Source of the DNA: Lachnospiraceae bacterium
Lineage (GTDB): Bacteria; Bacillota; Clostridia; Lachnospirales; Lachnospiraceae
Length of the DNA stretch: 64,000 bases
Reading direction: 5' to 3'
Assembly (NCBI GenBank): GCA_022799355.1
Contig: JAAWOG010000010.1
Span: 5,766-69,765, forward strand
Positions 25,911-61,729 of this stretch are shown in pieces; position 1 is the stretch's first letter; each line of letters opens with the position of its first letter. The notes beneath the pieces were generated by a model. The model had not been told where the DNA came from, did not search any database, and was given only the letters and a program-made list of their open reading frames with translations. A program made the position numbers and the translations under genes.

Positions 25911-27674
25911 ATGGAGGTGAGTTTCATCAGTCAGTCTAAAAAAATTACGGCAGGATTTATATTACTTTTAACAGTTATAATGGGGGCATTTTTGACTGGT
26001 GATTCTCAAAGAACTGTACATCTTGGCTTTTCTGAAAAGCCGGGATATTATGACGAGGTTATTGAACTGAAAATTTTGGGAAGCGATGGAAACAGGGTAT
26101 ATTATACTCTGGATGGGAGCGATCCCGGAACGGACGGAATATTATATGAACCGGATAAGCCGATTATACTTACGGATGCCAGTGCCAATCCGAATGTTTA
26201 TTCGGCGAGAACGGATACTTCTACCGCGTTTCTTAGTGATCTGGTAGAGACATATTCATCGGGAGCGGAGGAACCCGGATACACGGTTCCCGATTATCCT
26301 GTTGACAAATGCAATGTGGTTCGTGCCGCTGCTTTTGATAAAAAGGGAAATTGCCTTGATACGATAACAGGTGTATATTTTGTGGGATTTCAGGATAAGA
26401 TCGGTTATGATAAAATATATACCGCCTCGATTGTAACAGATCCGGATAATCTGTTTGATTATGACAGGGGGATTTATGTTACGGGAAGTACGTTTGAGGA
26501 AGCAAAAGATACCATTTTTGGTTCCGACGGCGAGGGGAATGATTCGGTTTTGGAACATCGTTCCTGGTACTGGTGGACGTCAAACTACAGTAACAGAGGA
26601 ATCGAGTGGGAAAGGGAAGCGGTAGTAACCATTTTTGATGAGGGAAAAGAGCAGGTTTTGTCAGAAAACTGTGGTATCAGAATACAAGGCGGGGGCAGTA
26701 GGGGAATGCTGCCGAAAAGCATTGGCTGCTATGCGAGAAGAGATTACGGAGGAAGCTATAATTTTCAGACGCCATTGTTTCAGGAAGAGATATATCCTCA
26801 TAAGTTTGTCTTTTTTTCCGGTGGTGATGATAATGTTTTTAAATTAATGGATTATCTGGCGAATACAATGGAAAAGGATCTTGCTTTTTCCACGATGGAT
26901 TTTATTCCCTGCGCGGTTTTTCTGAACGGGGAATACTGGGGAGTTTATTATATGACGGAAAATTACAACCGTGATTTTATCAGCAGCCACTATAATGTGG
27001 AAGAGGATAATGTGATCATGGTAAAGAATGGTGAACTGGCAGAAGGAAAGGGACAGGAGGTAAGGCTTTTTGAGGAAATGGTGTCATTTATTGCCGGTAA
27101 TGACATGACACTGGAGGAAAATTATGAGCGGGCGTGCCGTCTGATCGATGTAGACAGTTACATAGATTACTATGCGGCACAGACATATATTGCGAGATAT
27201 GGTGACTGGCCCGGGGGAAACTATGCGGCGTGGAGGACAAGAAAGAGCGAAGGTTCTGCCTATGGAGACTGCAGGTGGAGATGGATGCTTTTTGATGTGA
27301 ATTCCGGAGCATTGGCTGTTGATATGGTGGAGGCGGATATATTTGTGAGTATTCCGCAGAGTGATGTGGTGTTTCAGTCATTGTATCAAAATGAAGCGTT
27401 TCGGGCAAAATTTGCCGAAAGGTTATTATATATAGGCAGAGAGATATATTCAGAGGAAAACTGTCAGGCTTTTCTGGAGGATTATGTGCAGAGGATGAGG
27501 GAGCCGGTTGCCGCAGGCAGCCTTCGGTTTTATAATGATGCGCGAAGAGAGGAATTTGACAGGAATGTTGAAAATATCAGTTTGTTCTTTGAGGGAAGAT
27601 ATGATGCCATATGGAGTTCGCTGACAGAGAACATGGGAGAAGAATGGCTTAGAAAAAATGGAATACAGAAATGA
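25911..27674 (+). CDS. CotH kinase-family protein with an N-terminal signal anchor (exported)
   Basis: 587 aa. TM anchor ITAGFILLLTVIMGAFLTG. CotH-type blocks are CGIRIQGGGSRGMLPKSIGCYARRDYG, CAVFLNGEYWGVYYMTENYNRDFI and VDSYIDYYAAQTYIARYGDWPGGNYAAWR. Confidence 0.8.
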   Translation: MEVSFISQSKKITAGFILLLTVIMGAFLTGDSQRTVHLGFSEKPGYYDEVIELKILGSDGNRVYYTLDGSDPGTDGILYEPDKPIILTDASANPNVYSARTDTSTAFLSDLVETYSSGAEEPGYTVPDYPVDKCNVVRAAAFDKKGNCLDTITGVYFVGFQDKIGYDKIYTASIVTDPDNLFDYDRGIYVTGSTFEEAKDTIFGSDGEGNDSVLEHRSWYWWTSNYSNRGIEWEREAVVTIFDEGKEQVLSENCGIRIQGGGSRGMLPKSIGCYARRDYGGSYNFQTPLFQEEIYPHKFVFFSGGDDNVFKLMDYLANTMEKDLAFSTMDFIPCAVFLNGEYWGVYYMTENYNRDFISSHYNVEEDNVIMVKNGELAEGKGQEVRLFEEMVSFIAGNDMTLEENYERACRLIDVDSYIDYYAAQTYIARYGDWPGGNYAAWRTRKSEGSAYGDCRWRWMLFDVNSGALAVDMVEADIFVSIPQSDVVFQSLYQNEAFRAKFAERLLYIGREIYSEENCQAFLEDYVQRMREPVAAGSLRFYNDARREEFDRNVENISLFFEGRYDAIWSSLTENMGEEWLRKNGIQK

Positions 27675-28347
27675 ACTGAAATTTATGGTATCTGATTCGG
27701 ATCTGGAAAGGATCAGGTATAGGCTTTTACCGCTGATGAAGCAGGATGAGCATCAGGGAATACGTGGATACCGGGTGAGCAGCGTTTATTTTGATGATAT
27801 TTACGATTCTTATTTATCTGAGAATGAAGCGGGGACAGATAACAGGAAAAAGTACAGAATCAGGTTGTATAACGGAGATTCGGAACTTATTCATCTGGAA
27901 AGGAAGTCTAAATATCGTGGAATGACCGGAAAAATGAAGCAGAAACTGACAAGGGAAGAGGGCGAATTTCTGATAGCCGGAAATTTGGAAGGGCTGCATG
28001 ATAAAATGGCATCTGAAGATGATTTTCTGCTCAGAGAAGTTTGCATGGAAATTTTGAGGAAAAAACTGAGAGCAAAATGCATTGTGGAATATGAGCGGTT
28101 TGCTTTTGTGGAGAGTACGGGTAATGTCAGGATAACATTTGACAGGAATGTATCCGGCAGCAGGCAGGTGGAGAGTTTCTTTGAAGAGGATATTGTCCAT
28201 ATGCCGGTTATGCCCAGAGGCTGGCATATACTGGAGATAAAATACGATGAACTTTTGCCGCACTATATTTTGCAGGCGGTCGACACAGGAACCCTGCGCA
28301 GACAGTCCTTTTCAAAATATTGTGCGGTGAGGCGGATTGTCGGGTAG
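27658..28347 (+). CDS. VTC-domain (CYTH/triphosphate-tunnel, polyphosphate-polymerase-like) protein, soluble
   Basis: 229 aa starting MEYRNELKFMV. Alternating basic/acidic beta-strand motifs are typical of tunnel metalloenzymes (YRVSSVYFDD, KYRIRLY, HLERKSKYRGMTGK, ILEIKYDE). The ATG overlaps the end of the CotH gene by 17 nt. Confidence 0.75.
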   Translation: MEYRNELKFMVSDSDLERIRYRLLPLMKQDEHQGIRGYRVSSVYFDDIYDSYLSENEAGTDNRKKYRIRLYNGDSELIHLERKSKYRGMTGKMKQKLTREEGEFLIAGNLEGLHDKMASEDDFLLREVCMEILRKKLRAKCIVEYERFAFVESTGNVRITFDRNVSGSRQVESFFEEDIVHMPVMPRGWHILEIKYDELLPHYILQAVDTGTLRRQSFSKYCAVRRIVG

Positions 28348-28363
28348 AGGGAGTGAGGATATC

Positions 28364-29038
28364 ATGGGCGTTAAGGATGTGATAAAGAAATCGGTGCTGG
28401 AAGGCTTTGCGGCTAACGATATTTCCAATGTGAAAATTATTGTGACGCTGGGAATTTGTTTTCTGATTGCGGCATATATCTATTTTATATACAGATATAT
28501 AACAAAAGCCACGTTTTATGACAGGAATTTTAACGTTGCGATGGCAATGGTTTCAGTTGTTGTTGCGGGGATTATACTTGCGATGCAATCCAATCTGGTT
28601 ATTTCACTGGGAATGGTAGGAGCCCTATCGATTGTGCGCTTCAGGACGGCAATAAAAGAGCCCATGGATCTGTTGTTTTTGTTCTGGTCGATCGGAACCG
28701 GTATTATCTGCGGCGCCGGTTTATACGAACTGGCAATTATCATAGCGCTTGTGGTGACAATTGGAATCCTGCTTTTGCAGATTATACCGATCAATGCAAG
28801 CCCTTATCTGGTAGTTATCAACGCGAAGGATAAAGGGATGGAAGCTGATATTCTGACAATCGTAAAAAAATATTCTCCGCGTTATCGGATTGACTCAAAA
28901 AATATCCGGGCGTCGGGGATGGATCTGATCATAGAGATACGAAGCAAAAGCGGCAGTACGCTTGTAGATGAGTTGTCCGCGATAGAGGGTGTTGCGTCGG
29001 TTTCTTTATTATATCATGATGCACCGGTAAAAAATTAG
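28364..29038 (+). CDS. DUF4956-family membrane protein (4-5 TM plus a small C-terminal soluble domain)
   Basis: The ORF track starts at TTG 28337. ATG 28364 follows an AGGGAGTGAGGA SD. It carries the characteristic block LGMVGALSIVRFRTAIKEPMDLLFLFWSIGTGIICGAG. It lies 17 nt after the VTC stop codon. Confidence 0.75.
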   Translation: MGVKDVIKKSVLEGFAANDISNVKIIVTLGICFLIAAYIYFIYRYITKATFYDRNFNVAMAMVSVVVAGIILAMQSNLVISLGMVGALSIVRFRTAIKEPMDLLFLFWSIGTGIICGAGLYELAIIIALVVTIGILLLQIIPINASPYLVVINAKDKGMEADILTIVKKYSPRYRIDSKNIRASGMDLIIEIRSKSGSTLVDELSAIEGVASVSLLYHDAPVKN

Positions 29039-48281: not shown

Positions 48282-48845
48282 ATGGAAAAAAGAGAGTATA
48301 TTGATCTGTATTTAAAGGAGACGGCGGAAATCATCGAAAAGCTGGACAGAGAGGCGATCGCGGACGCGGTTTCGGTTCTGGAGAAGATAAAGAAAGACGG
48401 CGGACGGCTGTTTGTTTTAGGCGTGGGGGGCAGTGCGGCAAATGCTTCCCATGCGGTAAATGATTTCAGGAAGATCGGCGGGATTGAAACCTATGCGCCT
48501 ACGGATAACGTGTCGGAACTGACGGCGAGGACCAACGATGAGGGGTGGGAGACGACTTTTTCGGAATGGCTGAAAACGTCCGGACTCTGTGAAAAGGATG
48601 TGCTTATGGTGTTTTCCGTGGGCGGCGGCAGTGAAACGACATCGCTGAATATCGTGAATGCTTTGAAACTGGGGCAGGAGCGGGGAACAAAGATCATCTC
48701 CATCGTTTCCAGAGACGGAGGATACGCAGGGCTGGTGTCGGATGCCTGTATTTTGGTACCGGTGGTATCGAAGGAGAGGATCACACCTCATGCGGAAGGC
48801 TGGCAGGGCGTGCTCTGGCATCTACTGGTCAATGCGTTACATTGA
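48282..48845 (+). CDS. gmhA: SIS-domain sedoheptulose-7-phosphate isomerase (GmhA)
   Basis: The ORF track starts at 48252. ATG 48282 follows an AAAGGAGAAG SD. GRLFVLGVGGSAANASHAVNDFRK, VLMVFSVGGGS, and ISIVSRDGG. Confidence 0.8.
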   Translation: MEKREYIDLYLKETAEIIEKLDREAIADAVSVLEKIKKDGGRLFVLGVGGSAANASHAVNDFRKIGGIETYAPTDNVSELTARTNDEGWETTFSEWLKTSGLCEKDVLMVFSVGGGSETTSLNIVNALKLGQERGTKIISIVSRDGGYAGLVSDACILVPVVSKERITPHAEGWQGVLWHLLVNALH

Positions 48846-48846
48846 T

Positions 48847-49587
48847 ATGGTTTATTCGGAGAACAATAGCGTGAAGATAGAAGATTTAAAGATTGCGATC
48901 TATGCGGACGGCGCCAATATTGAAAAGATGAAACAGATGAGCCGGCTGTCCTATATTAAGGGGTTTACCACGAATCCTACACTGATGAAAAAAGCCGGGG
49001 TGGCTGACTATGTGTCCTTTGCAAAGGAAGCTCTTGCCGAAATACCGGACCGTCCCGTCTCCATGGAAGTTTTTGCCGATGATTTTGACAAAATGGAGCG
49101 GGAAGCAAAAGAAATTGCCTCCTGGGGAGAAAACGTATTCGTAAAGATACCCGTTATGAATACAAAAGGAGACTCCGCCATACCACTGATCAAAAAACTT
49201 TCGGCAGAAGGATTGCACCTTAACGTTACGGCGGTTTTTACAATAGAACAGGTTCACAGCGTAGTGGAGGCATTCTCGGAAGGGACCGAAAACATTGTCT
49301 CGGTTTTTGCCGGCCGTATACTGGATGCGGGAGTAGACGCAGAAGAGATTATGAAACAAGCCCTGCCTATCTGCAGAGCCAAAAGAGGCACAAAACTCCT
49401 CTGGGCAAGCGTCAGGGAAGTGTTCAACATCGTTCAGGCTGACCGCTGCGGTGCAGATATTATCACAGTACCCGATGAAATCATCACAAAACTCCATAAC
49501 TTCGGGAAAGATCTGACAGAATTTTCGAGAGAGACCGTGGAAATGTTTGTGAGAGATGGGAAAAGCCTTGGTTTTTCCATTCTGTAA
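48847..49587 (+). CDS. Transaldolase-family protein (short TalC/FSA-like class)
   Basis: ATG 48847 lies 1 nt after the gmhA stop (the ORF track starts at 48742 inside gmhA). IAIYADGAN, the GFTTNPTLMKK signature, SMEVFADD, VFVKIPV (Schiff-base Lys context), LNVTAVFT, and SVFAGRI. Confidence 0.75.
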   Translation: MVYSENNSVKIEDLKIAIYADGANIEKMKQMSRLSYIKGFTTNPTLMKKAGVADYVSFAKEALAEIPDRPVSMEVFADDFDKMEREAKEIASWGENVFVKIPVMNTKGDSAIPLIKKLSAEGLHLNVTAVFTIEQVHSVVEAFSEGTENIVSVFAGRILDAGVDAEEIMKQALPICRAKRGTKLLWASVREVFNIVQADRCGADIITVPDEIITKLHNFGKDLTEFSRETVEMFVRDGKSLGFSIL

Positions 49588-49618
49588 AATACGAATAAAG
49601 CAATTATACATAAGAGAC

Positions 49619-49651
49619 GGTTATATGCTGCAGTTCTCACAGCATATAACC
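49619..49651. terminator. Perfect 12-bp hairpin between convergent genes (probable bidirectional terminator)
   Basis: GGTTATATGCTG (49619-49630), loop cagttctca, CAGCATATAACC (49640-49651). It lies 32 nt after the transaldolase stop and 40 nt after the stop of the minus-strand lipoprotein gene. There is no U-run on either side, so its efficiency is uncertain. Confidence 0.55.
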
Positions 49652-49690
49652 GCCTCTGACAGCGTATCATTTAAAATCTAAAAGTTAAGA

Positions 49691-50194
49691 TTATTCCCCT
49701 AAAGCCAGAAAAGCACTCCTGATCGCATTTGTCGTATTTGTATCCCCCATAACAAACAGGATAACTTCCCCTACATTTTCCACGACAACACTTTCTGCTT
49801 CCACACAGATCCATTTTCTCGGATCGGCATTGTCGGAGATAGTCTGTTTTGCCGCTTCCACATCAGCGCCTTCCGGCAGCCTTAACAGAATACACTGATA
49901 AGGAACGGCATTTATCATCGGCATGGAATAATAGCTTTCCGCATACTCCACATCCGCTGTTCCGATCATGTATTCGGCTGAATCTGCGGGAATCTCCCCG
50001 GAATCAAAACTGCCTTCCATGGAATCCCTGAAATCCTGCGAAAGATCTGCGTTTTCATAGACGGTGTCCATGATGTCAGAGAGAGGCCCGATCAAATTTA
50101 CATCAGCGGCATCACCGCTGCCGGATTTACCGCAGGATGTGAGCAAAAGAGCCGCCGTAAGCACAGACAATAATAATGTTCTTTTTTTTCTCAT
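49691..50194 (-). CDS. Small secreted lipoprotein (possibly DUF4358-like)
   Basis: 167 aa. Signal peptide plus lipobox MRKKRTLLLSVLTAALLLTSC|GKSGS. The mature part is acidic. Confidence 0.65.
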   Translation of the reverse strand: MRKKRTLLLSVLTAALLLTSCGKSGSGDAADVNLIGPLSDIMDTVYENADLSQDFRDSMEGSFDSGEIPADSAEYMIGTADVEYAESYYSMPMINAVPYQCILLRLPEGADVEAAKQTISDNADPRKWICVEAESVVVENVGEVILFVMGDTNTTNAIRSAFLALGE

Positions 50195-50302: not shown

Positions 50303-52651
50303 TTAAGATACCCCATTCACAGATATTTCATAAAATTCTCCCGAAAAAGGATCTCTTACATAATCACTGTCCTCCCGTCCCATGCCGGGTATCAGGATTT
50401 CTTCCAGAACCGCACCGGTTTCATCGGAAAAGTATATCGTCTCCCCTTTTCGGAGATTAAAGTCCAGCGGGAGAGCGCTGTTATTTGGCGCCTGCCTGTT
50501 TTTCTTCCCGTAGAGAACAAGAGATTCACCGGGAGCAAGGACTTTGCCGGGAAGTCCGGTTTTTTTCAGCGCCGCGGGATCATCGCTGAGATACAGCCCG
50601 CTAAGGGAGATGTCATGGCCTGAGGGATTGGTGATCTCTATCAGATCATTTGTCCCCTGAACATGGATGCGGGAGATAATGGGAAGGGCATCGGGCTTAT
50701 CTTCCAGAACAAGGGAAATCTTCAGCCGGGGATTATTTTCCGACTCCGCGTAGCCCTGGGTTCCAAAATTTTCCGGTGGAGTAAAATCCTGCATATTCTG
50801 TATCGGAATTTCCAGCAATTGTTTTAGGTCTTCGGATGAAAAAGTAAGTTCTTTTTCTCTATATTGTACACCGTTTACGAGCCAGTATGCAAAGTTGTGT
50901 CCCTCATTTGCGGAAGCCTTCAGTGTGAGGGCATTGTCCGCATAGTAGATACCCGAAAAACTGCTGCCCGTGTCCGCAATGGAATTTACCGAAATCCTGG
51001 CGTTTTCCGGACAATCTACCTGCAGATGGTAAGGATAAAATAAAGCAAAATCCCGCTGCAGGAAAGTGTGCATGTAGCCCGGGCGGTTTGCGGCGAAGGT
51101 TAAGATGGAGGCGGTTTCGGCATGCACCATTTCCATGGTGGTAATATCCGGCAGCATATTTTCCACATAATAACCGAGTTCCCGATCCCTCAAAAGAGAG
51201 AGTTCCTGCACCGTTTCGGAGACGGATTCATAGGAAAAGGTTTTGTTCATCAGATCGCACACATAAGTAGAAAACATTTCCCGGCAGTCCGCCCTTGCCA
51301 TCAGGTTGCAGAAAAGAGGGGACTGATAGTTATTTAACAGCACGGCAATATTGTCCTCTTCGCAGGCATACCCCGGCACATCGTCGGTTAACCCAAAACC
51401 ATAATCGGTATCGTAAAACAGATATCGATATCTTCCGTCAAAAACAGTCCCTTTCGTGTAATGCCCGTCATCGGCAATATACCGATAAGCGCGGACATTG
51501 TTGTAGGGCCAGTCTTTATTGGCAATATAGATTTCCATCGCGTAATAGGAGAGATAGTTTTCCACATCAATTTTTTCACGGAGCGCCTGATAGAGGGTAT
51601 CATCCGTCAGGTCGGCTTCCGCGTAAGTATCATAGATGTCCTGATACTCTTCAATGATCGGACTCATTTCCTCCCCTTCTTCTCCCGCCGTCTTATAGAA
51701 TTCCCACAGCGTAACCCGATCAAAATGTCCGTTTGCGCTGCCGTAGAGTTCCTCCATCTGTCCGGCGGAAAAAGGCTCTTTGATCCAGTAAAAGCCGGCG
51801 TACTCACCATTGATATAGACCGCGGCGGGAACATAAGGCGTTGTGAGCAAAAAGCCGTAGTCTGTGGCTAACTGCTGGAACAGGGTATCCCGAAGAAATG
51901 CCTTGCCGAAATCATTGCCGCTGTTGCGAAAGACAAGGCGGTTACTGCGGTCCGAAATGGTATTGTCCGTCTCCCGGCGGACGGAGGGAAACAGGGAGAG
52001 ATGGAATTTCCCGTATTCATCATAGTCCTTTCGGGCAAAAAGCTGGAAAGATTTCTGAGCCTTACCCCTGGAAAAATTGCCGAAAATCCGCAGGCCGCAG
52101 TTCTGGGAGGCAAGGAGCTTTCCGTCCCTGTCAAAAATCTGGAAATGGACAGGGCGTTCCGAAACTTCTCCGGATAGTGTATAATTCGTAAAAACCCCCT
52201 CTTCTTCACCGTAGAGATCCGAAGGATTTCCCAGAATATTGACCACATATGTATCATATCTGGAACGGACAAAGAAACCCAAAATATAGTTGTAACTGTA
52301 AACCTTTGAACTTGTTCCGTCATCAAAATAAAGACGGAAACGCAGAGGGTAGGATTTCTCTTTTAATGCCGCTTTTAAGGCAATGGGACGCTCGTACAGG
52401 ACGGAAGCGGAAGAAGTACTGGAGGGTTCGGAACCGTCTGTGGTATAATATATATCGGCATTTTTGACAGGCGTAATGCGGATTCGCAGGGAATGACGGT
52501 AAAAACCGCTTTCATGGCTGATCATAAAAGCGGAATCGGTAAGGGAGCCGCCTTTTTTAACATCATCCTGCATGAAGAGGGCAAAAGGAAGTACAAAGGC
52601 GGCGGAAAGCAGAAATATAACAATCATAATAAAGGAATGTAACTTTTTCAT
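50303..52651 (-). CDS. CotH kinase-family protein with an N-terminal signal anchor and a C-terminal lamin-tail-like (LTD) domain
   Basis: The ORF track extends to 52780. ATG at 52651 gives MKKLHSFIMIVIFLLSAAFVLPF. CotH blocks are CGLRIFGNFSRGKAQKSFQLFARKDYD, VPAAVYINGEYAGFYWIKEPFS and VENYLSYYAMEIYIANKDWPYNNVRAYR. The C-terminus reads IHVQGTNDLIEITNPSGHDISLSGLYLSDD...LAPGESLVLYG. Confidence 0.75.
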   Translation of the reverse strand: MKKLHSFIMIVIFLLSAAFVLPFALFMQDDVKKGGSLTDSAFMISHESGFYRHSLRIRITPVKNADIYYTTDGSEPSSTSSASVLYERPIALKAALKEKSYPLRFRLYFDDGTSSKVYSYNYILGFFVRSRYDTYVVNILGNPSDLYGEEEGVFTNYTLSGEVSERPVHFQIFDRDGKLLASQNCGLRIFGNFSRGKAQKSFQLFARKDYDEYGKFHLSLFPSVRRETDNTISDRSNRLVFRNSGNDFGKAFLRDTLFQQLATDYGFLLTTPYVPAAVYINGEYAGFYWIKEPFSAGQMEELYGSANGHFDRVTLWEFYKTAGEEGEEMSPIIEEYQDIYDTYAEADLTDDTLYQALREKIDVENYLSYYAMEIYIANKDWPYNNVRAYRYIADDGHYTKGTVFDGRYRYLFYDTDYGFGLTDDVPGYACEEDNIAVLLNNYQSPLFCNLMARADCREMFSTYVCDLMNKTFSYESVSETVQELSLLRDRELGYYVENMLPDITTMEMVHAETASILTFAANRPGYMHTFLQRDFALFYPYHLQVDCPENARISVNSIADTGSSFSGIYYADNALTLKASANEGHNFAYWLVNGVQYREKELTFSSEDLKQLLEIPIQNMQDFTPPENFGTQGYAESENNPRLKISLVLEDKPDALPIISRIHVQGTNDLIEITNPSGHDISLSGLYLSDDPAALKKTGLPGKVLAPGESLVLYGKKNRQAPNNSALPLDFNLRKGETIYFSDETGAVLEEILIPGMGREDSDYVRDPFSGEFYEISVNGVS

Positions 52652-52739
52652 ACTGCTATCATAATATAAAATCTTAAAAAAATACAGAGCGAAAGGCTGA
52701 AAATTAAAAATTTTAAACAGCGCAGAAACAGGAGAAACT

Positions 52740-54437
52740 ATGAAAAAGCAGATGTGGCATAAAAAACTGGGGAGGATCATTTACAGCAGTCGGTTTTATA
52801 CGGGAGTGTTGCTGTTGCTCATGATGATTCCGGGCATTTTGTTCACAAAACGGGTAGTGCGGGCGGATGAGATCGATATGGTTTCGGATAAGGAATTTCA
52901 GGAAATACTGAATAACTACAGAGAGAATCAGGAACTTTTATCGGAGGGGGAAGTCCTGCTGACACTCAATGACTGTCCATTGCCCTATGACAGAGGGGAA
53001 AATATCTGGTATGTGGCACAGAACCCGGAGAACAGAGCGTGGGAGGGTGTGCTGGGGCTCAGTGAAAGAGATGCCGTGCTCTACCTGTTAGATGACGGTT
53101 ATCTGAGAAAAAAGGAAGAAGTGATCCGGGAGGGACATCTGTTTCAGGCGGTAATCGTAAAAGGGGAGGAATATGCGCAGGCTTCCATTGCGGTATCGGG
53201 TATGCCTGTTGTTTCTATTGAAACAAAAGATACCTGGCAGCCAGTGTATCCGATCGAGGATATTGATAACTATGTATTTAATTCGGAACTCCGTTGCCTC
53301 GGGGATATCACGATATTCCATGCAAACGGAAATTCGGGCACATATAAAGCGCTGAAGGACCATGCAGGTTCTGATTACCGCATCGTGAAGGCAAAGGTCA
53401 GTTATCATACAAGAGGTAATACATCGGACAACTTTGAGAAGAAGAGTTATGCCCTGAAACTGACGGATGAGGAGGGGGAAGGAAAAAAAGTAAATCTGTT
53501 CGGGCTGGGGGAGAGTGCGGACTGGAAACTTCTTGCCGGGGCAGGGGATGTAACGAAGGTGCGGGAAAAGACCGCCTGGCAGCTCTGGCAGGAGATAGCG
53601 GACAGGCAGAGCCTGACCTCGGAAGGGGCTTCAGCCATGGAATACTGCGAGGTTGTCCTGGACGGCAGTTATATCGGGATGTATCAGGTACTGAAAAGCC
53701 CGGATAAGAATACGCTGAATCTGGAGACAACGGACGTGCTGTACAAATTTTTACAGGCGGAGATGCCTCTTGAGGCGGATATTCAGAGCAGTATCGATGC
53801 TGCCTATCCGGTTTGTTATCCGATCAGGATACGCTATCCGGGGCAGGATACGGTAAGCTTAGATCCTGCGGGGTACTGGGAGCCGCTGCGGCAGTATCTG
53901 GGGGCGGCGTATTGGCATATTGACTTTGAAAGGCTGTATTTACTGATCGATTTGGAAAACACAATGGACTACTACCTGTTTCTGGAGGCGACATCGGCGT
54001 GGGACAATGCCTGCAAAAATACCTATCATATAGCCAGAAGGACGAAAGAAGGGGAAGTAAGGATGCTGACGATCCCATGGGATTTAAACTATACTTTCGG
54101 GGATGAGTATACCACGGAGATAGAACTGGGAAAGACGAGGTTCAATCCGGATACGACGCAGCTTTACACGGAACCCGTGATCAGACAGCTTTTTATGAAT
54201 AATACACACGGAGAAGAAGACATATTGAAAAGCAGATGGGCGGCGTACAGGCAGGATATTTTCAGCGATGAGCATGTTTTGGGGCTGATGCGGGAAAATA
54301 TGGAATATATGCAAAAGACCGGCGCGTTTGAGAGAGATTCCGCAAGGTGGCCCATGCAGAACAATGACAGCGATCTGACAAAGATTATGGAGTATGAAAG
54401 AGAAAGGCTGAGGTTTTTGGATGAATATTTCGGGTAA
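52740..54437 (+). CDS. CotH kinase-family protein, exported (tandem paralog 1)
   Basis: 565 aa, TM anchor FYTGVLLLLMMIPGILF. VSYHTRGNTSDNFEKKSYALKL, ADWKLLAGAGDVTKVREKTAWQLW, YCEVVLDGSYIGMYQVLKSPDKNTL, and LTIPWDLNYTFG. Confidence 0.7.
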   Translation: MKKQMWHKKLGRIIYSSRFYTGVLLLLMMIPGILFTKRVVRADEIDMVSDKEFQEILNNYRENQELLSEGEVLLTLNDCPLPYDRGENIWYVAQNPENRAWEGVLGLSERDAVLYLLDDGYLRKKEEVIREGHLFQAVIVKGEEYAQASIAVSGMPVVSIETKDTWQPVYPIEDIDNYVFNSELRCLGDITIFHANGNSGTYKALKDHAGSDYRIVKAKVSYHTRGNTSDNFEKKSYALKLTDEEGEGKKVNLFGLGESADWKLLAGAGDVTKVREKTAWQLWQEIADRQSLTSEGASAMEYCEVVLDGSYIGMYQVLKSPDKNTLNLETTDVLYKFLQAEMPLEADIQSSIDAAYPVCYPIRIRYPGQDTVSLDPAGYWEPLRQYLGAAYWHIDFERLYLLIDLENTMDYYLFLEATSAWDNACKNTYHIARRTKEGEVRMLTIPWDLNYTFGDEYTTEIELGKTRFNPDTTQLYTEPVIRQLFMNNTHGEEDILKSRWAAYRQDIFSDEHVLGLMRENMEYMQKTGAFERDSARWPMQNNDSDLTKIMEYERERLRFLDEYFG

Positions 54438-56106
54438 GAGAGGACTGTCAGTGCGTTTTTATCAATATGGCGGTCTGCTGCTTTTTAGCATCTGGCTGCT
54501 GCTTGGCTCTTTGTGGGCACAGGGGAAGAAGGAGGAAGTCTGTCCCATTACGGATTATGTGGTCAGTTCGGAGGTTTTAGGAGAGCTGGCGGCGGGGAGA
54601 GAAGAGGGCGACCTTTTGGAGCAAAAAGAAGCGGGACTTTATCTGAACGGATATCATGTGCCTTTGGAGAAAGAAAAAAAGCTCTTTTATATTTCCCAGC
54701 CGGCGGAGGCCGGGGAATGGAGAGGGGATCTGAAACCCTATGGCGCGGAACTGTATGTTTCGGAGGATGAGTATCTGGCAAAACTCCCTCAGGCGATCGG
54801 AGAGGGACATATTTTTAAAGCGCTGCTTTGTACGAAAGACAGGTATCAGGAGATCGGTATCGTGCTTACGGGGATGCCGGTAGTCGATATAGAGACGGAA
54901 AGGGAGGAGACCCAGGAGTATCCGATTGAGGACATTGATAATTATGTGTTCAATTCGGAGACTCGCTATTATGGCGATATCACTGTTTTTCAGTCAGGAA
55001 ATTCGGCGCTGCCGGGGAAAGAGGGAGAGGTAAAGGGAGAATATCAGATTTTGCGGCGGAAGGTCTGCTATCATGAGAGAGGACAAAATTCCGCGCTGTT
55101 CGGGAAAAAGAGTTATGCGGTAAAACTTCTGGATCAAAAAGAGAAGGGTATTTCGGAGCCGTTATTTGGTATGCAGCGCAGTGCGGACTGGAAGCTGCTT
55201 GCCATGTATTCCGATCCCAATAAACTCAGAGATAAGGTCTCCATGGATCTATGGGAGGAGATAGCAAAAGGGGAGGAACGGTTTAACGAGAGGGGCCCGG
55301 AGATGGAATACTGTGAAGTGATTTTGGACGGACAGTATATGGGACTCTACGGTATGATGCTTCCTGTGGATGAGAATACGCTGGAACTCGGGGAGCAGGA
55401 TGTGCTGTACAAGGTGCTGGACTGGTATATGCCGGAGGAGGCGGATATTCAGGCTTCCGTGGATCAGAACTATGAGGTATGCTATCCTGTGCGCGTCAGA
55501 TACCCGAAGAAGGAAGATGTACCGGTCGGAAAGCTGTGGGAGCCTGTCAGGGAGTATTTTACCTGTAAATACTGGAGGATGGATTTTAACGCTTATTCGG
55601 AGATTACCTGCACGGAAAATCTGGCGGATTATTATATTTTTATTCAGGCGGTTTCGGGATTTGACAATTATCTGAAAAATACGTATATTTTAGCTAAAAA
55701 GGTGGATGGGACGCCGGAATGGAAAATGCTCACGATTCCCTGGGATCTGAATTATACTTTTGGGAACTGCTATGATTATGACGCCGATAAAAACTATACG
55801 GCATTCAATTCTGACACAAGTGTCAACTATGTGGAGCCTGTGCTGGAACAGCTCTTCCGCTCGAGTTTTAACGGGGAAGCGGAGATTTTGAAAGCAAGAT
55901 GGGAAAAATATCGCGCCGGCACGCTCAGTACGGAGCATATTATCGATCTTTTGCAGGAGAATATGGACTATCTGTGTAACACAGGGGCTTTTCGGAGGGA
56001 TACCGAAAAGTGGGAGGACGCAGGAAACAGCGCGGATCTGACGGAAGTGAAGGCGTATGTGGAAGGGCGGATGGAGTATCTGGACGGATATTTCGGAAAT
56101 TTTTGA
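54421..56106 (+). CDS. CotH kinase-family protein, exported (tandem paralog 2)
   Basis: 561 aa, collinear with 52740..54437 (YPIEDIDNYVFNSETRYYGDITVF, VCYHERGQNSALFGKKSYAVKL, ADWKLLAMYSDPNKLRDK, YCEVILDGQYMGLYGMMLPVDENTL, LTIPWDLNYTFG). The start overlaps the upstream stop by 17 nt. Confidence 0.7.
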   Translation: MNISGKRGLSVRFYQYGGLLLFSIWLLLGSLWAQGKKEEVCPITDYVVSSEVLGELAAGREEGDLLEQKEAGLYLNGYHVPLEKEKKLFYISQPAEAGEWRGDLKPYGAELYVSEDEYLAKLPQAIGEGHIFKALLCTKDRYQEIGIVLTGMPVVDIETEREETQEYPIEDIDNYVFNSETRYYGDITVFQSGNSALPGKEGEVKGEYQILRRKVCYHERGQNSALFGKKSYAVKLLDQKEKGISEPLFGMQRSADWKLLAMYSDPNKLRDKVSMDLWEEIAKGEERFNERGPEMEYCEVILDGQYMGLYGMMLPVDENTLELGEQDVLYKVLDWYMPEEADIQASVDQNYEVCYPVRVRYPKKEDVPVGKLWEPVREYFTCKYWRMDFNAYSEITCTENLADYYIFIQAVSGFDNYLKNTYILAKKVDGTPEWKMLTIPWDLNYTFGNCYDYDADKNYTAFNSDTSVNYVEPVLEQLFRSSFNGEAEILKARWEKYRAGTLSTEHIIDLLQENMDYLCNTGAFRRDTEKWEDAGNSADLTEVKAYVEGRMEYLDGYFGNF

Positions 56107-56174
56107 CGAAATGACAGGATAATTTGTGTTATTCGGGAAATTATGGTAAACTGTTATTTCATAGGGAAACGGTG

Positions 56175-57341
56175 ATGAACGACAGAATTTATGTATGCCA
56201 TACATACTATCATGCGTATGTGGCATTTTTGAAAGAACTAAAACTGCGCCGGGAGAAGGCGGACAGCGGAGAGGCTGCACTGGTACTGAGCAGCATGTCC
56301 AATGATTTTGAACAGTTCGGGGAGCGGGTAAGGGGCACCGGACTGTTTGCTGATGTTATTTCCTTCGATGAGAAGCGTGAGGACTATTTTCCGGAACTTG
56401 CGTCCTTTCGGCAGGATAAGGGAAATATTGTTTTGAATATGTGGCAGCGCATTCGCTTTACAAAGCGCTATGCGGAGCTGGAAGCGCCCTTTGTCCCGGT
56501 AGATTTCAGAAAATACCGGGAAATTTTTGTGTTCTGCGATTCCGATCCCATAGGTTATTATCTGAATCAGAATAAGATTTATTATCATGCGCTGGAGGAC
56601 GGGCTGAACTGCCTTGTCCATTTTGATGCGGCGAGATATGATAACAGGGGGCATTTCGGGCTGAAAGCCTTTTTATCCAAAAAGCTGAACCTGATCTTTG
56701 TGCAGAACGGTTATGGAAAATACTGTCTGGATATGGAAGTCAACAGTATTTCCGCAATTACCATGCCCTGTCCTTACTATAAAGAACTGCCCAGGCAGAT
56801 GCTGGTGGATGCGCTGACGGGAGAGGATAAGAATATTATATTGCGGGCTTTTGTCAGGGATATGGATGGACTAGTGAGAAAGATCAGGGAGTGCGGCGCA
56901 GGTTCCTCCGAAATGGAAGAGGCGCCGGATAAACGGAAAGAAGAGACAAAGAAAACAGGGACAGGCGGTAAAAAGCGGGATAAAATACTGCTTCTGACCG
57001 ATCCGCTCTGTACACTCGATGTCAGGGAACGGATTTTCCGGGATATCGTTGCGGAGTATGAAAAACAGGGACAGATTTTCATAAAGCCCCATCCGCGGGA
57101 CGAGCTGGATTATCGAAAGGTATTTCCCGGTTATCCCATGTTTGATGCGACGGTCCCGATGGAAATGCTGAACTTTTTCCCCGACCTGCATTTTGAACAG
57201 GTAGTCACGGTCTTTACGGATTTAAAGGGAATCCGTTTTGCGGATAAGCTGGTCCGCCTTGGAGATGAATTTATGGACAAGTATGAAGATCCGGAGATCC
57301 ATAACCAGAATAAGCGGATCGGTATTATCGAGAAGGATTGA
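56175..57341 (+). CDS. GT-B glycosyltransferase with bacterial sialyltransferase-type motifs (GT52-like; candidate nonulosonic-acid or other keto-sugar transferase)
   Basis: The ORF track starts at 56124; ATG 56175 gives MNDRIYVCHTYYHAYVAF. It carries a D/E-D/E-G motif (YYHALEDGLN) and an HP motif (IFIKPHPRDE) in the order and spacing typical of GT52/GT38/GT80 sialyltransferases. A Lys/Glu-rich low-complexity linker (..EEAPDKRKEETKKTGTGGKKRDK..) lies between the two halves. Confidence 0.5.
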   Translation: MNDRIYVCHTYYHAYVAFLKELKLRREKADSGEAALVLSSMSNDFEQFGERVRGTGLFADVISFDEKREDYFPELASFRQDKGNIVLNMWQRIRFTKRYAELEAPFVPVDFRKYREIFVFCDSDPIGYYLNQNKIYYHALEDGLNCLVHFDAARYDNRGHFGLKAFLSKKLNLIFVQNGYGKYCLDMEVNSISAITMPCPYYKELPRQMLVDALTGEDKNIILRAFVRDMDGLVRKIRECGAGSSEMEEAPDKRKEETKKTGTGGKKRDKILLLTDPLCTLDVRERIFRDIVAEYEKQGQIFIKPHPRDELDYRKVFPGYPMFDATVPMEMLNFFPDLHFEQVVTVFTDLKGIRFADKLVRLGDEFMDKYEDPEIHNQNKRIGIIEKD

Positions 57342-57362: not shown

Positions 57363-59111
57363 ATGCAAGAAATCTTAAAAAAACTGAATGTCCTGCTGGA
57401 TAAAAAACAGAAGCAGACCATGTTGTTTATGGTTCTGATGATGATATTCGGCGCTGTTTTGGAGGCGTGCAGCGTGTCTATGGTCATTCCGGTGGTGGGA
57501 GTGGTCATTGATGAAAATTCCATTCAGAAATACGATATTGTGGGGAGAGTATACAATGCACTCCATATGCAGAGTGTGATGCAGTTTGCCCTTTTGATGA
57601 TGGCTGCGCTTATTTTGATCTTTATCGTGAAAAATATTTATCTTTACTGGCAAATGAAGTTTATGTATCGGTTTGTTTATACGAACCAGTTCCGGACTTC
57701 TGAGCGGATGATGAAAAACTATCTGCGGAAGGGGTATGAGTTTTACTTAAATGCGGATACTGCGGTCATTCAGAGAAATATCACCTCCGATGTCAATAAT
57801 ATGTATGCGCTGATTCTGTCCCTGCTGCAGCTTATCTCGGAGATTATTGTGTTTGTGGTACTGCTCGGCGTGATGGTGGCTTCGGACTGGAAGATGACGA
57901 TAGTGATCGCCCTTCCTCTGCTTCTGACGCTCTTTATCATCAAAAAAGTGGTAAAGCCTATTATGAACAGGGCGGGGAAGGAAAATCAGGATTTTTACAG
58001 TGGTTTATTTAAGTGGATATCCCAGACCGTGCAGGGGATTAAAGAGGTGAAGATCGCCGGAAAAGAGCAGTATTTTACGGAAGAATATATCAAGTGCGGT
58101 AGGGGCTATGTGAATGCGGTCCAGAAATACACGCTCTATAACAGCATCCCCCGGCTTTTGATCGAGACAGTCTGTATTGCCAGCCTTGTGGGCTATATGA
58201 TGATCCTTGTGAGCCAGGGAGAGAGCGTGAAGGAAGTGACGGCAGTGCTCTCCGCCTTTGTGGTGGCGGCGGTGCGGATGATGCCCTGCGCAAACAGGAT
58301 CAACAACCAGCTCACGTCCATGGCCTTTTACCAGCCCTTCTTTATGGGCGTCAGCGATAATCTGCAGGATGAGATCTCAGGGGAAAATACAGATATGAGC
58401 TTTGCGGTGGTGGCAAAGGAAAAACTGCCCGTGAAAAAGAGCATTGAGCTGCGGGATATCACTTACCATTATCCGGGAGCGGAGCCGCTTATTTTCGACC
58501 ATGCGAATATGGAAATTCCGGTGGGCGCGGCGGTAGGCATAGTGGGAACATCCGGCGCCGGAAAGACTACGATAGTGGATATTCTGTTGGGGCTTTTGGA
58601 GATCAGGACCGGCGGGGTTTACGCTGACGGTGTCAGCATCAAAGAAAACTACAGAAGCTGGCTGAAGAATGTGGGCTATATTCCCCAGATGATCTTTATG
58701 CTGGATGATACGATCCGCAAGAATGTGGCGTTTGGCATCGCGGAAGAGGAGATTGATGAGAAGAGACTCTGGGAGGTACTGAAGGAAGCACAGCTCGATG
58801 AGTTTGTGAGGAGCCTGCCGGATGGCGTAAACACGAGTATCGGAGAGCGGGGCATCCGCATTTCCGGCGGACAGAGGCAGCGTATCGGCATTGCGAGAGC
58901 GCTCTACTATGATCCGGAGGTGCTGATCCTGGATGAGGCGACGTCTGCGCTGGATAATGACACGGAGGCGGCGATCATGGATTCCATCAACAGCCTGCAC
59001 GGCAGAAAGACGCTGATTATCATTGCCCACAGGCTGCAGACGATAGAGAAGTGCGATATGATCTATCGTGTGGAAGGCGGGAAGGCGGTTTTGGAGAGAG
59101 GCAGGAATTAA
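57363..59111 (+). CDS. ABC exporter, fused permease-ATPase half-transporter (MsbA/PglK-like)
   Basis: 582 aa. Six N-terminal TM helices, Walker A GTSGAGKTT, signature ISGGQRQR, Walker B LILDEATSALD, and H-loop IIIAHRL. Confidence 0.85.
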   Translation: MQEILKKLNVLLDKKQKQTMLFMVLMMIFGAVLEACSVSMVIPVVGVVIDENSIQKYDIVGRVYNALHMQSVMQFALLMMAALILIFIVKNIYLYWQMKFMYRFVYTNQFRTSERMMKNYLRKGYEFYLNADTAVIQRNITSDVNNMYALILSLLQLISEIIVFVVLLGVMVASDWKMTIVIALPLLLTLFIIKKVVKPIMNRAGKENQDFYSGLFKWISQTVQGIKEVKIAGKEQYFTEEYIKCGRGYVNAVQKYTLYNSIPRLLIETVCIASLVGYMMILVSQGESVKEVTAVLSAFVVAAVRMMPCANRINNQLTSMAFYQPFFMGVSDNLQDEISGENTDMSFAVVAKEKLPVKKSIELRDITYHYPGAEPLIFDHANMEIPVGAAVGIVGTSGAGKTTIVDILLGLLEIRTGGVYADGVSIKENYRSWLKNVGYIPQMIFMLDDTIRKNVAFGIAEEEIDEKRLWEVLKEAQLDEFVRSLPDGVNTSIGERGIRISGGQRQRIGIARALYYDPEVLILDEATSALDNDTEAAIMDSINSLHGRKTLIIIAHRLQTIEKCDMIYRVEGGKAVLERGRN

Positions 59112-59126: not shown

Positions 59127-60716
59127 ATGAATCGAAAATTTGCTGCGAATATAAAAAGAATAGTTGTAGGAATAGTGACGGTAATTGGGCTTACAATTTT
59201 TGGATATTTGACATGGTACAGCTTTAGATTTACTTATAATTTTATTCCTGAATATAGTGAATTATTTGATATAGAAAAGGATAATCTGTTTTTGCATTGT
59301 ATTACACTTGTGATCTGTATTTTATCACTAAGCTTTTTCGGTAATATTGGAAAAGATGTATCAGAAAATACAAAGTTAAAAGCAGAAAAATTTGTGTTAA
59401 TTTTTGCTATGTTGTCTATGACAATTGCCGGAATCTTGTGGGTTTCCGTTGTTCACGCTCAGCCCTGTACCGATCAGAGGTGGGTGGTGGAAGGCGCATG
59501 TTCACTTATGGATGGAGATTATAGAATATTGGAGCCGGATCAGTATTTTGGAACATATACTTATCAGCTTTGTCTTGCGGTGATATTTCGTTTTTTATTT
59601 ACGATAAGCGGAGTACGGGACTATCATATAATACAATACTGTAATGTGCTCTGCATTCCTGTTATTGTTTTGGCTGGATATAAGATTGTAAAGAATTTGG
59701 GTGGCAGAAGTAAATCAGGTATTTTTTATTGCCTGCTCATTATGACATGTTTCCCTTTGCTATTGTATACACCATTTGTTTATGGAGAAATTTTCTCAGT
59801 AATGGCAGGTATGGTTTTTGTATGGGGGCTGATGGCATTTGTACGAGGAAGGCAGAAAAAGTGGATGCCACTGGTTGTTGTGAGTGCGGTTTTCGGGGTG
59901 CTTACAAGAGGAAATTTTTGGATAGTAATTATAGCTGCCTGCATTATTTTAATGTTATGTGGACTGTGGAGGAAGAATGGGGCGATGTTATTGCTTATGC
60001 TGCTTATTGTAGTAATGCCCATCTGTATGAAAAACGGAATTGAACTGATTTACGAGCAGCGATCTGGTTTGAGACTGGATCAGGGAACGCCATTTATCAG
60101 TACGATTGCAATGGGAGTGCATGATGAAGGAAATCAGCCGGCGGGCTGGAGTAATCTTCATGACTATTATGCGTATGCATTGAACGATTGTGACAGAGAA
60201 AAAGCTGCAGAATTTTCTAAAGAATACCTGCGGATCCGCATGGCGGCGTTTCGTGAGGGAAGTGCTGATTGGAAAGCTTTTTATAAAGAGAAACTTTTAA
60301 CCCAATGGGAGGAACCTACCTGGCAGAGCCTTTTGGCAAATCATGACTTTGCAGAAGAACCGGGAGAGGTTGTCAACAGTATTTATTATGGAAATCTGAA
60401 AAATATTCTTTTGGGATTTTTAAATGAGTACCAGTGGTTGCTGTATGTGGGAGTGTGTTTATTTTTCTGGTATTGTTTTATAAAAAAAGTACCGTTTTAT
60501 ATGTTGCTTCCAGAAATAATTTTGATTGGGGGAGTACTGTTTAGTCTATTGTGGGAAGCTAAAACAAGGTATAGTTTTCCGTATATGATATATATGTTGC
60601 CCTGCATGTCAATAGGGTTAGTGGAAGTCTCAGAAATGATTTTTGACAAAATCCAAAAAAACAGAAAATGGAAAATAAAAAAGAAAGATGAGATATTGGG
60701 AGAAAAGATGGCATGA
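59127..60716 (+). CDS. GT-C-like polytopic membrane protein encoded by a sharply AT-rich gene
   Basis: 529 aa with at least 11 TM segments. An external loop reads ..HAQPCTDQRWVVEGACSLMDGDYRILEPDQYFGTYTYQL... My hand count gives 28% GC at 59281-59340, against 52% at 58981-59040 and 50% at 60901-60960. It shares an ATGA overlap with the next gene. Confidence 0.55.
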   Translation: MNRKFAANIKRIVVGIVTVIGLTIFGYLTWYSFRFTYNFIPEYSELFDIEKDNLFLHCITLVICILSLSFFGNIGKDVSENTKLKAEKFVLIFAMLSMTIAGILWVSVVHAQPCTDQRWVVEGACSLMDGDYRILEPDQYFGTYTYQLCLAVIFRFLFTISGVRDYHIIQYCNVLCIPVIVLAGYKIVKNLGGRSKSGIFYCLLIMTCFPLLLYTPFVYGEIFSVMAGMVFVWGLMAFVRGRQKKWMPLVVVSAVFGVLTRGNFWIVIIAACIILMLCGLWRKNGAMLLLMLLIVVMPICMKNGIELIYEQRSGLRLDQGTPFISTIAMGVHDEGNQPAGWSNLHDYYAYALNDCDREKAAEFSKEYLRIRMAAFREGSADWKAFYKEKLLTQWEEPTWQSLLANHDFAEEPGEVVNSIYYGNLKNILLGFLNEYQWLLYVGVCLFFWYCFIKKVPFYMLLPEIILIGGVLFSLLWEAKTRYSFPYMIYMLPCMSIGLVEVSEMIFDKIQKNRKWKIKKKDEILGEKMA

Positions 60717-61729
60717 AATGCAGCGTGATCGTACCGGTCTTTAATATGGCGGCGGACGGAAAACTGGAATATTGTTTAAATTCTCTGATGCACCAGACGT
60801 TGCGGGATCTGGAGATCATTGCGGTGGATGATGCTTCAACGGATGGTTCTCTGGAGATATTAAGGCGCTATGAGGCGGATTATCCGGAAAGATGCAAGGT
60901 GATTCATTATGAAAAGAACAAGCGGCAGGGCGGCGCCAAGAATGAAGGGCTGAAGATTGCTTCCGGTGAGTGGATCGGTTTTTTGGACAGCGATGACTGG
61001 GTATCACCTGATTTTTATGAGAGGCTGATTAAAAAGGCGGAGGAAACAAAAGCCGATGTGGTCGGATGTGATTATTCACTTGTGTCGGAACATACGATGG
61101 AAGTCGGGAGAATTGTGAAAAACAACACCGATGATCAGACCGGCATCTGTGATGAGGCGCAGCACAGAAAGCTTGTGATGCGGCCGGGCAGTATGGTTAT
61201 TAAGGTATACCGGGGCAGTATGATCCGTGAGAACGGACTGGATTTTCCGGAGGGGATCTTTTATGAAGATAACTGCGCGGGAACGGTCTGGATGTTGTAC
61301 TGCGGGCGTTTTGAAAAGATAAATGAGCCGCTTTACTATTATTATCAGCATGATGTGTCCACGGTACATTATATTTCGGAGGAAAAGTGCAGAGACCGGA
61401 TGAAAGCCGGGGAGCTGATGGTGATGGAGTGCAGCAGCCGGGGATTTATAACAAAATACCGCCCGGAGATCGAGTTTCGCTTTGCGGAGACTTATTATAT
61501 CACGACATTGTTCTCCTACATGTCCGGTGTCAGGCACAGAAAACTTTCCTTCCTTGCGGAGCTGCGGGACGGGATGAAGAAATACTTCCCGGATTTTCAG
61601 GACAATCCGTATTATTTAAGAGAGATCGGGGCGGAGGAGAGAAAACTAGCAAAGCTTCATCAAAGGAGTAATCTCGGATTTTATTGTTACTATATTGCAT
61701 TAAATACATGGAGAAAACTGAGAAAGTAA
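60713..61729 (+). CDS. GT2 glycosyltransferase (soluble, GT-A fold)
   Basis: CSVIVPVFNMA, EIIAVDDASTDGS, the FLDSDDW DxD motif, and 338 aa with no TM segment. Confidence 0.85.
   Translation: MKCSVIVPVFNMAADGKLEYCLNSLMHQTLRDLEIIAVDDASTDGSLEILRRYEADYPERCKVIHYEKNKRQGGAKNEGLKIASGEWIGFLDSDDWVSPDFYERLIKKAEETKADVVGCDYSLVSEHTMEVGRIVKNNTDDQTGICDEAQHRKLVMRPGSMVIKVYRGSMIRENGLDFPEGIFYEDNCAGTVWMLYCGRFEKINEPLYYYYQHDVSTVHYISEEKCRDRMKAGELMVMECSSRGFITKYRPEIEFRFAETYYITTLFSYMSGVRHRKLSFLAELRDGMKKYFPDFQDNPYYLREIGAEERKLAKLHQRSNLGFYCYYIALNTWRKLRK

Follow-up and report, generated by a model that had tools for sequence, protein, structure and literature searches.

Predicted extracytoplasmic CotH-fold, kinase-like proteins of two subfamilies in a surface-glycan region of a Lachnospiraceae bacterium

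A stretch of 64,000 nucleotides from a gut Lachnospiraceae bacterium (GenBank assembly GCA_022799355.1, contig JAAWOG010000010.1, positions 5,766 to 69,765 of the forward strand), referred to below as the window, carries three clustered genes of the CotH family, CotH-LTD, CotH565 and CotH561, and a fourth member of the family, CotH587. From their predicted folds and active-site residues, the three clustered genes probably encode catalytically competent CotH-fold, atypical kinase-like enzymes. They appear to represent two old subfamilies, namely, a long type with the arrangement Fn3_assoc-CotH-LTD and a short type with an N-terminal beta domain of its own, which is present here as a seemingly ancient tandem pair. 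Comparison with related loci from Lachnospiraceae of the mouse and human gut (designated by L numbers) showed that the CotH genes are stably associated with a Lachnospiraceae surface-glycan module.

All four proteins matched the Pfam family PF08757 (CotH) with 86-105 bits against a cut-off of 23.8 (E 1e-24 to 1e-30), and the matches covered profile positions 1-322 or 3-322 in three proteins and 36-320 in CotH587. AlphaFold2 models built on homologue alignments had a pLDDT of 87.1 for CotH561 and 88.8 for CotH-LTD. When the models were compared with the PDB by Foldseek, the only strong matches of each were the B. cereus CotH kinase structures 5JD9 and 5JDA (CotH561 to 5JD9, E 1.9e-15, TMt 0.69; CotH-LTD to 5JDA, E 6e-11, TMt 0.78). 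CotH565 and CotH587 presumably share this fold, judging from their 45% and 24% identity to the modelled proteins. Sequence searches against the PDB by phmmer, and also with the subfamily profile A2, gave nothing relevant and did not recover 5JD9. Because even a profile failed in these searches, the window proteins must be far from Bacillus CotH. The link to 5JD9 was made by structure prediction and Foldseek, together with hhalign against the B. cereus CotH sequence taken from a printed structural alignment (probability 89% for CotH-LTD and 87% for CotH561). These results bear out the assignment of all four proteins to the CotH family in an earlier note on this DNA.

The active site was mapped by profile-sequence alignment (hhalign) and motif inspection (Table 1). 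In B. subtilis CotH, mutation of D228 or D251 abolishes kinase activity (PMC7821199); these residues correspond to D224 and D247 of the B. cereus CotH chain. The residues aligned with D228/D251 are D380/D414 in CotH-LTD, D422/D448 in CotH565, D415/D442 in CotH561 and D432/D462 in CotH587, and an Asn is found at +5 of the catalytic Asp throughout. D415 was assigned by an ungapped match to the motif FD-x4-N-x-Y and by its invariance, not by the hhalign register. Every one of 42 short-subfamily members (42/42) has K229, D415, N420 and D442; of 32 members of the long subfamily, 31-32 retain K200, D380, N385 and D414. The earlier note had taken a loss of the catalytic residues in all copies as a sign of a purely structural or binding role; all four proteins, however, have the catalytic Asp-x4-Asn, the Asp that binds metal and the lysine of the K(K)S[YF] motif. 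Rough dN/dS values were 0.05-0.13 for all three clustered CotH genes, with dS saturated (>1), and the rate of non-synonymous change in these genes is 3-5 times that of the ABC exporter and GHMP kinase genes of the locus. All three genes thus appear to be under purifying selection.

Table 1. Active-site motifs and key residues of B. cereus CotH and the four window proteins
Protein	Lysine motif	Catalytic loop	Metal-binding motif	Key residues
B. cereus CotH	EFEKKSYHVM	NFDGFVHNYALY	IPWDYDATWGR	
CotH565	NFEKKSYALK	AWDNACKNTYHI	IPWDLNYTFGD	K234, D422, N427, D448
CotH561	LFGKKSYAVK	GFDNYLKNTYIL	IPWDLNYTFGN	K229, D415, N420, D442
CotH-LTD	KAQKSFQLFA	NKDWPYNNVRAY	LFYDTDYGFGL	K200, D380, N385, D414, D416
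CotH587	MLPKSIGCYA	YGDWPGGNYAAW	MLFDVNSGALA	K269, D432, N437, D462

By hydropathy scan, all four proteins have one hydrophobic segment, at the N-terminus and with K/R residues before it, and no second stretch of strong hydrophobicity. In the AlphaFold2 models of CotH561 and CotH-LTD this segment is drawn as one long helix. Full-length homologues have the segment too, in 56/56 short-type and 83/91 long-type proteins. The starts of several exceptions fall within a hydrophobic run, a sign that they were miscalled, and a lipobox is present in one homologue. These observations uphold the hydrophobic N-terminus that the earlier note had read as a signal anchor in all four proteins. B. cereus CotH begins MLPSYDFFIHP and has no comparable N-terminal segment. 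Since the hydrophobic N-terminus is conserved in the family and lacking in B. cereus CotH, the best reading is that the catalytic domains face the outside of the cytoplasmic membrane, with a predicted topology oriented by the positive-inside rule. The earlier note had likewise placed these proteins outside the cytoplasm, unlike the Bacillus spore-coat protein. Fn3_assoc/CHB_HEX_C_1 and LTD domains, found in the long type, are typical of extracellular bacterial proteins.

The four proteins fall into two groups. CotH-LTD and CotH587 are 24% identical (E 1e-28) and belong to the same long subfamily, and no BLASTP similarity was detected between this type and the tandem-pair type. CotH565 and CotH561 are 45% identical. 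In a neighbour-joining tree, the 565-type and 561-type proteins formed two clades, each containing the window copy and those of L001, L002, L005, L006, L008 and L010; L003, L004 and L007 have the 561-type only. The tandem duplication thus appears to be old, with both copies retained as orthologues in six related genomes. The earlier note, which had proposed dating the duplication by a phylogeny, described an expansion of paralogues; this description is overstated, because two anciently separated subfamilies are involved and the tandem copies, 45% identical, fall into two orthologous clades. A single local expansion of four paralogues was rejected on the ground that the two types have no detectable pairwise similarity. 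A recent duplication or gene conversion of the tandem copies was also rejected, in view of their 45% amino acid identity, DNA matches that are short and confined to conserved motifs, and the two orthologous clades. Since the duplication is old and stable, alternative expression of the tandem copies as near-identical variants is unlikely. One of the short DNA matches, 42 nt at 88% identity (53246-53287 and 54918-54959), encodes YPIEDIDNYVFNSE, a motif that is nearly invariant throughout the short subfamily and sits just before the CotH domain. Lineages differ in how many copies of either CotH type they carry: four short CotH genes are present in L021, and L038, whose short CotH is 54% identical, has two tandem LTD-CotH genes (102-4882) and one short CotH gene. 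A profile of the short subfamily matched 1,180 clusters (50% identity) at E <= 1e-30 and 7,862 at E <= 1e-3.

The lengths and positions of the three clustered open reading frames (ORFs), the AT-rich spacer between the divergent genes and the overlap within the tandem pair were all as described in the earlier note (Table 2). CotH-LTD consists of a transmembrane (TM) helix or signal (residues 2-32), an Fn3_assoc/CHB_HEX_C_1 beta domain (42-124; Pfam match at 48-120), the CotH kinase-like domain (135-535), a second beta domain (540-604) and a lamin-tail domain (642-777). The Pfam match to LTD (PF00932, 658-748) is marginal (35.0 bits; cut-off, 34.3). In the model, however, the last 130 residues matched the human lamin B1 tail (3jt0/3umn; Foldseek probability 1.0, TMt 0.52-0.59 over 106-108 columns), and the C-terminal lamin-tail-like domain named in the earlier note is therefore confirmed. 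Most CotH-LTD homologues already carry a precomputed LTD annotation. CotH565 has a signal or anchor at about 19-40, a beta-rich N-terminal domain and the CotH domain at 224-560; in CotH561 the corresponding parts are an anchor helix or signal at 9-35, a beta-rich domain at about 60-215 and the CotH domain at 220-554. None of the ten locus proteins scanned received an NCBIfam name.

The public gene calls place some starts elsewhere. CotH-LTD is called as 774 aa from M9 (52627 versus 52651) and CotH565 as 561 aa from M5 (52752 versus 52740). The 774-aa call would drop the positively charged n-region of the signal. The orthologues align from residue 1 of the longer versions, that of CotH-LTD included; no obvious Shine-Dalgarno sequence was seen upstream of its MKK start. 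AGGAG lies 8 nt 5' of the CotH565 ATG, and GAGG lies 9 nt 5' of the CotH561 ATG. The coding regions of CotH565 and CotH561 overlap by 17 nt (ATGAATATTTCGGGTAA), and translational coupling of the two is plausible. The 88-nt spacer is presumed to be a divergent promoter region; the promoter-like hexamers in it are weak matches at the level of a consensus scan. An invertible or phase-variable promoter in the spacer was rejected, since a repeat search found no flanking inverted repeats.

Table 2. Features of the window discussed in the text
Feature	Position	Strand	Description
CotH587 (fourth CotH)	25911..27674	+	587 aa; signal anchor, Fn3_assoc/CHB_HEX_C_1, CotH
VTC-domain protein	27658..28347	+	229 aa, no TM segment; Pfam E 8e-39
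DUF4956 membrane protein	28337..29038	+	About 4 TM segments (TM scan); Pfam
Hairpin	49613..49657		18-nt arms, 94% complementary, 9-nt loop; flanked by the converging transaldolase and lipoprotein genes
Lipoprotein	49691..50194	-	167 aa, acidic, lipobox LLTSC; directly downstream of CotH-LTD
CotH-LTD	50303..52651	-	782 aa; ORF 50303-52780, read from MKKLHSF at 52651
Divergent spacer CotH-LTD/CotH565	52652..52739		88 nt, 71.6% A+T
CotH565	52740..54437	+	565 aa; Pfam CotH E 3.5e-24
CotH561	54421..56106	+	561 aa; Pfam CotH E 8.9e-30
GT52/polysialyltransferase-like glycosyltransferase	56124..57341	+	PF07922 E 4e-10; PF07388 E 2e-5
Fused TMD-NBD ABC exporter	57363..59111	+	Pfam ABC_membrane + ABC_tran
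Membrane protein	59127..60716	+	About 9 TM segments; weak PMT_2 (GT-C-like) signal, 22.4 bits, below cut-off; in some relatives only
GT2 glycosyltransferase	60713..61729	+	Pfam E 1e-35; last conserved gene of the plus-strand block

The clustered CotH genes form part of a conserved block, in which the lipoprotein and CotH-LTD genes on the minus strand face one or two short CotH genes, the GT52-like gene, the ABC exporter gene, in some genomes the GT-C-like gene, and the GT2 gene on the plus strand. This block is conserved in L001, L005, L006, L008 and L010, and variants of it occur in L002-L004, L007 and L038. The placement of the CotH genes in a glycan locus, as put forward in the earlier note, is thus supported both by the gene content and by its conservation across related loci. 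The GT52-like gene always directly follows the short CotH gene or genes in L001-L008, L010 and L038; it encodes 405 aa as read here and 388 aa in the public call, which begins at M18 (56175 versus 56124). The identity of the ABC exporter is 93-95% in the closer relatives L001-L005 and L008 and 76-80% in L006, L007 and L010. The lipoprotein, which had no Pfam or NCBIfam match, adjoins CotH-LTD in L001, L003-L005, L007 and L008 and is also present in L002, which has no CotH-LTD (60-78% identity). CotH-LTD and the lipoprotein gene probably form a two-gene operon, and the hairpin downstream is likely to be a bidirectional terminator that closes it. Further short-type paralogues are found in other polysaccharide loci of the same genomes, together with Bac_transf, EpsG, GT2 or LicD. 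In two such glycan loci, a gene for a 125-aa Spo0A_C-only protein lies directly upstream of the paralogous short CotH genes (L035 8523-8900 and L036 8458-8838).

CotH587 is followed by genes for a VTC-domain protein and a DUF4956 membrane protein; the three genes (25911-29038) are adjacent and co-directional, and their ends overlap. The VTC protein gave a profile match to the catalytic tunnel domain of yeast Vtc4 (3g3q, E 3e-7), in which K200, R264, R266 and K281 of Vtc4 were aligned with its K8, R67, R69 and K83. DUF4956 genes commonly accompany bacterial VTC and CotH genes, and the same triad is present in L015, L017, L018, L020-L025, L032 and L033. The three clustered CotH genes lie 22 kb from it in the window, and distant homologues of theirs are in such triads. 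Distant short-type CotH genes stand directly upstream of VTC and DUF4956 genes in Eisenbergiella, Allofournierella and others, and distant LTD-type genes are likewise next to them in Kineothrix (L032) and L033. VTC and DUF4956 are therefore the most repeatable comparative link of these CotH types. In Kineothrix the triad (L032 8001-11706) lies outside any polysaccharide locus, beside gap-pgk-tpi, and so does that at L033 6265-10502. These examples contradict the published statement that the arrangement is absent outside pel loci (PMC12345266).

We tentatively favor a role of the CotH ectodomains in modifying, by phosphorylation, an exported glycan. According to this scheme, the glycan or a lipid-linked precursor would be exported first, and the CotH ectodomains would then transfer phosphate onto the polymer at the cell surface, and the accessory beta and LTD domains would keep it attached to wall or glycan; the VTC/DUF4956 pair (27.7-29.0 kb) would perhaps be the route by which the phosphoryl donor is supplied. 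The modification suggested in the earlier note, by phosphorylation or by formation of phosphodiesters, is a reasonable guess for the glycan; that a glycan is the substrate is speculative, as is the choice of donor. The eukaryotic secretory-pathway kinase-like enzymes include sugar kinases. CotH is distantly related to these enzymes (PMC7821199). Several points nevertheless weigh against glycan modification. The distinction between cleavage and anchoring of the N-terminal segment, as well as its orientation, leans on hydropathy and the positive-inside rule; the hhalign register of the tandem-subfamily catalytic loop is two residues off; and distant homologues linked to VTC and DUF4956 occur away from glycan genes (L032), so that the family does not require a glycan context. 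Since no ATP would be expected outside a Gram-positive cell, a donor must be postulated. Moreover, the proven CotH substrates, CotB and CotG, are all proteins (PMC7821199).

The last of these points leads to an alternative in which the window proteins, working outside the cytoplasm, would phosphorylate proteins as Bacillus CotH or Fam20C does. Their targets would be secreted or wall proteins or the periplasmic-face polysaccharide machinery, and the glycan would be affected indirectly, by way of regulation or assembly. All characterized CotH activity is Ser/Thr protein phosphorylation (PMC7821199), and the same active-site residues are kept here. In addition, the authors of the Pel studies proposed regulation by protein phosphorylation, and deletion of SIR_1594 lowered Pel-dependent aggregation (PMC7112168, PMC12345266). 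The conserved lipoprotein, probably co-operonic with CotH-LTD, is a possible target. On the other hand, no CotB/CotG-like protein rich in Ser/Lys/Arg repeats was seen among the window ORFs read, the lipoprotein has no such repeats, and the lack of an extracellular ATP donor is as much a problem for protein phosphorylation as for glycan phosphorylation. We consider this alternative nearly as likely as glycan modification. The difficulty over ATP would be removed if CotH, VTC and DUF4956 formed a trans-membrane phosphorylation system, and the recurrence of the VTC/DUF4956 partnership suggested polyphosphate as the way round it. The eukaryotic VTC complex passes polyphosphate into vacuoles; to our knowledge, a Vtc-like polyphosphate synthase/translocase in Firmicutes seems uncharacterized. 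In such a system the Vtc4-like tunnel enzyme in the cytoplasm would use ATP to build polyphosphate, the membrane protein DUF4956 would hand this on to the outside, and the four exported CotH enzymes would use it as a donor or attach it to surface glycans or proteins. This proposal is unlikely as it stands; if true, it would explain how a kinase can work outside a bacterial cell, and the multiple CotH types here would be substrate-specific outputs of one donor supply.

A non-catalytic function, with the CotH fold serving as a binding or scaffold module of an adhesin, a glycan-binding protein or a wall-organizing protein, would agree with the faster non-synonymous change of the CotH genes, 3-5 times that of the cytoplasmic enzymes of the locus. 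A role of this kind has been proposed for the CotH invasins of Mucorales and for cellulosomal CotH modules. The fusions to Ig-like, Fn3-like and LTD domains and, in cellulosomes, to dockerins (PMC6083626) also resemble adhesin or scaffold architectures. However, the Lys, the Asp-x4-Asn and the metal-binding Asp are invariant or almost so in 42 and 32 diverse homologues, which is unexpected for a purely structural role, and we regard such a function as distinctly improbable. Least likely of all, and highly so, is a role at the spore surface, in which the locus would make a spore-envelope glycan and CotH would mature the outer spore layers as in Bacillus. Many Lachnospiraceae sporulate. The family name points in this direction, since the sole characterized members are spore-coat kinases (PMC7821199), as does the small Spo0A_C gene upstream of the paralogous CotH genes in L035 and L036. 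In contrast, Bacillus CotH has no export signal, whereas all of the window proteins have an N-terminal hydrophobic segment; members of the family are also known from non-sporulating streptococci (PMC12345266); and Pfam scans of the ORFs revealed no sporulation genes in the window. The window proteins do not appear to be orthologues of the spore-coat CotH.

The known systems resemble the window proteins only in part. The CotH proteins of B. subtilis and B. cereus (5JD9, 5JDA) share with them the Pfam family, the atypical kinase fold, the catalytic Asp, the Asn at +5, the metal-binding Asp and the lysine of KKSY. They differ in that identity is 13-15%, in that the window proteins add an export signal, beta, Fn3_assoc and LTD domains and a glycan locus, and in that genes for CotB/CotG-like substrates were not seen among the window ORFs read. 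Among the accessory genes of pel loci in Gram-positive bacteria, Whitfield et al. counted cotH, a gene for a polyphosphate polymerase and DUF4956 (PMC7112168). In S. intermedius, deletion of the gene for the secreted CotH SIR_1594 or of the DUF4956-type gene lowers Pel-dependent aggregation, by a mechanism that the 2025 study left open (PMC12345266). The pel accessory genes SIR_1594/1593/1592 resemble the window in having an exported CotH beside exopolysaccharide genes and in forming the CotH-VTC-DUF4956 triad. Unlike those loci, the window gave no Pel-family match among the ORFs scanned against Pfam and no contiguity with pelDEADAFG; its polymer would come from a pathway of the heptose/GT52/ABC type, only one of the four CotH genes adjoins VTC, and the C-terminal domain is LTD here and FN3 there. 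In C. thermocellum, the CotH proteins CseP/Cthe_0044 and Cthe_0239 (LTD-LTD-Fn3-CotH) are cellulosomal, and the published cellulosome components include plain CotH proteins (PMC6083626). These are also secreted CotH proteins of Clostridia, and Cthe_0239 combines LTD, Fn3-like and CotH domains; they are dockerin-borne, whereas the window proteins have a membrane anchor or signal, the order Fn3_assoc-CotH-LTD and a glycan-biosynthesis context. The eukaryotic secretory kinases of the Fam20 type, some relatives of which phosphorylate sugars, likewise act in an extracytoplasmic compartment, and the relationship is distant. In their case the Golgi lumen imports ATP; we know of no equivalent donor supply outside a bacterial cell.

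Published precedents thus already exist for secreted CotH proteins beside exopolysaccharide loci, for the CotH-VTC-DUF4956 triad and for fusions of LTD to CotH (PMC7112168, PMC12345266, PMC6083626). Our literature search, which covered glycan kinases of the CotH family, CotH together with polyphosphate and the function of bacterial VTC proteins, found no published substrate or donor for an exported bacterial CotH; it gave only the Pel papers and nothing mechanistic. Exported CotH-family proteins are common. The finding itself is a confirmation at the level of annotation and not a surprise. What this locus adds is that a GT52-ABC-GT2 glycan module is accompanied by CotH genes of two subfamilies, that both subfamilies are linked elsewhere to VTC and DUF4956, and that the active-site residues are kept in all copies. 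Cultured Lachnospiraceae relatives would be a good place to ask whether bacteria phosphorylate surface polymers extracellularly and which donor is used.

The window as a whole is one long surface-glycan region with aminotransferases, dehydratases, GT1 and GT2 glycosyltransferases, acyl- and methyltransferases and many multi-TM proteins. The genes at 43750-49587, which encode a GFO/IDH/MocA oxidoreductase, a GHMP kinase, a nucleotidyltransferase-HAD phosphatase fusion, an SDR, a SIS isomerase and a transaldolase, look like a compact nucleotide-heptose-type pathway, with the transaldolase presumably the source of sedoheptulose-7-phosphate. This set is conserved 5' of the CotH block in L001, L003-L005 and L008. 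Unusually many proteins with 5-13 TM segments are encoded at 19316-25652, 29084-32990, 34138-40032 and 59127-60716, and two of them directly follow the CotH587-VTC-DUF4956 genes. These proteins matched no family or DUF6020, DUF6044, DUF6056 or, weakly, PMT_2, and are candidate extracytoplasmic glycosyltransferases or polymerases of the GT-C type. At 17769-19243, where two parts of the glycan region are separated, several short consecutive ORFs, one of which matched BrxC/BrxD (BREX ATPase, E 2e-6), look like a frameshifted ATPase pseudogene. The G+C content is 31-33% in the first 6 kb (1-6000) versus 47-50% in the middle of the window (30000-50000), which suggests a mosaic glycan region with parts of different origin. 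GC skew is positive almost throughout the window, and nearly all genes are on the plus strand.

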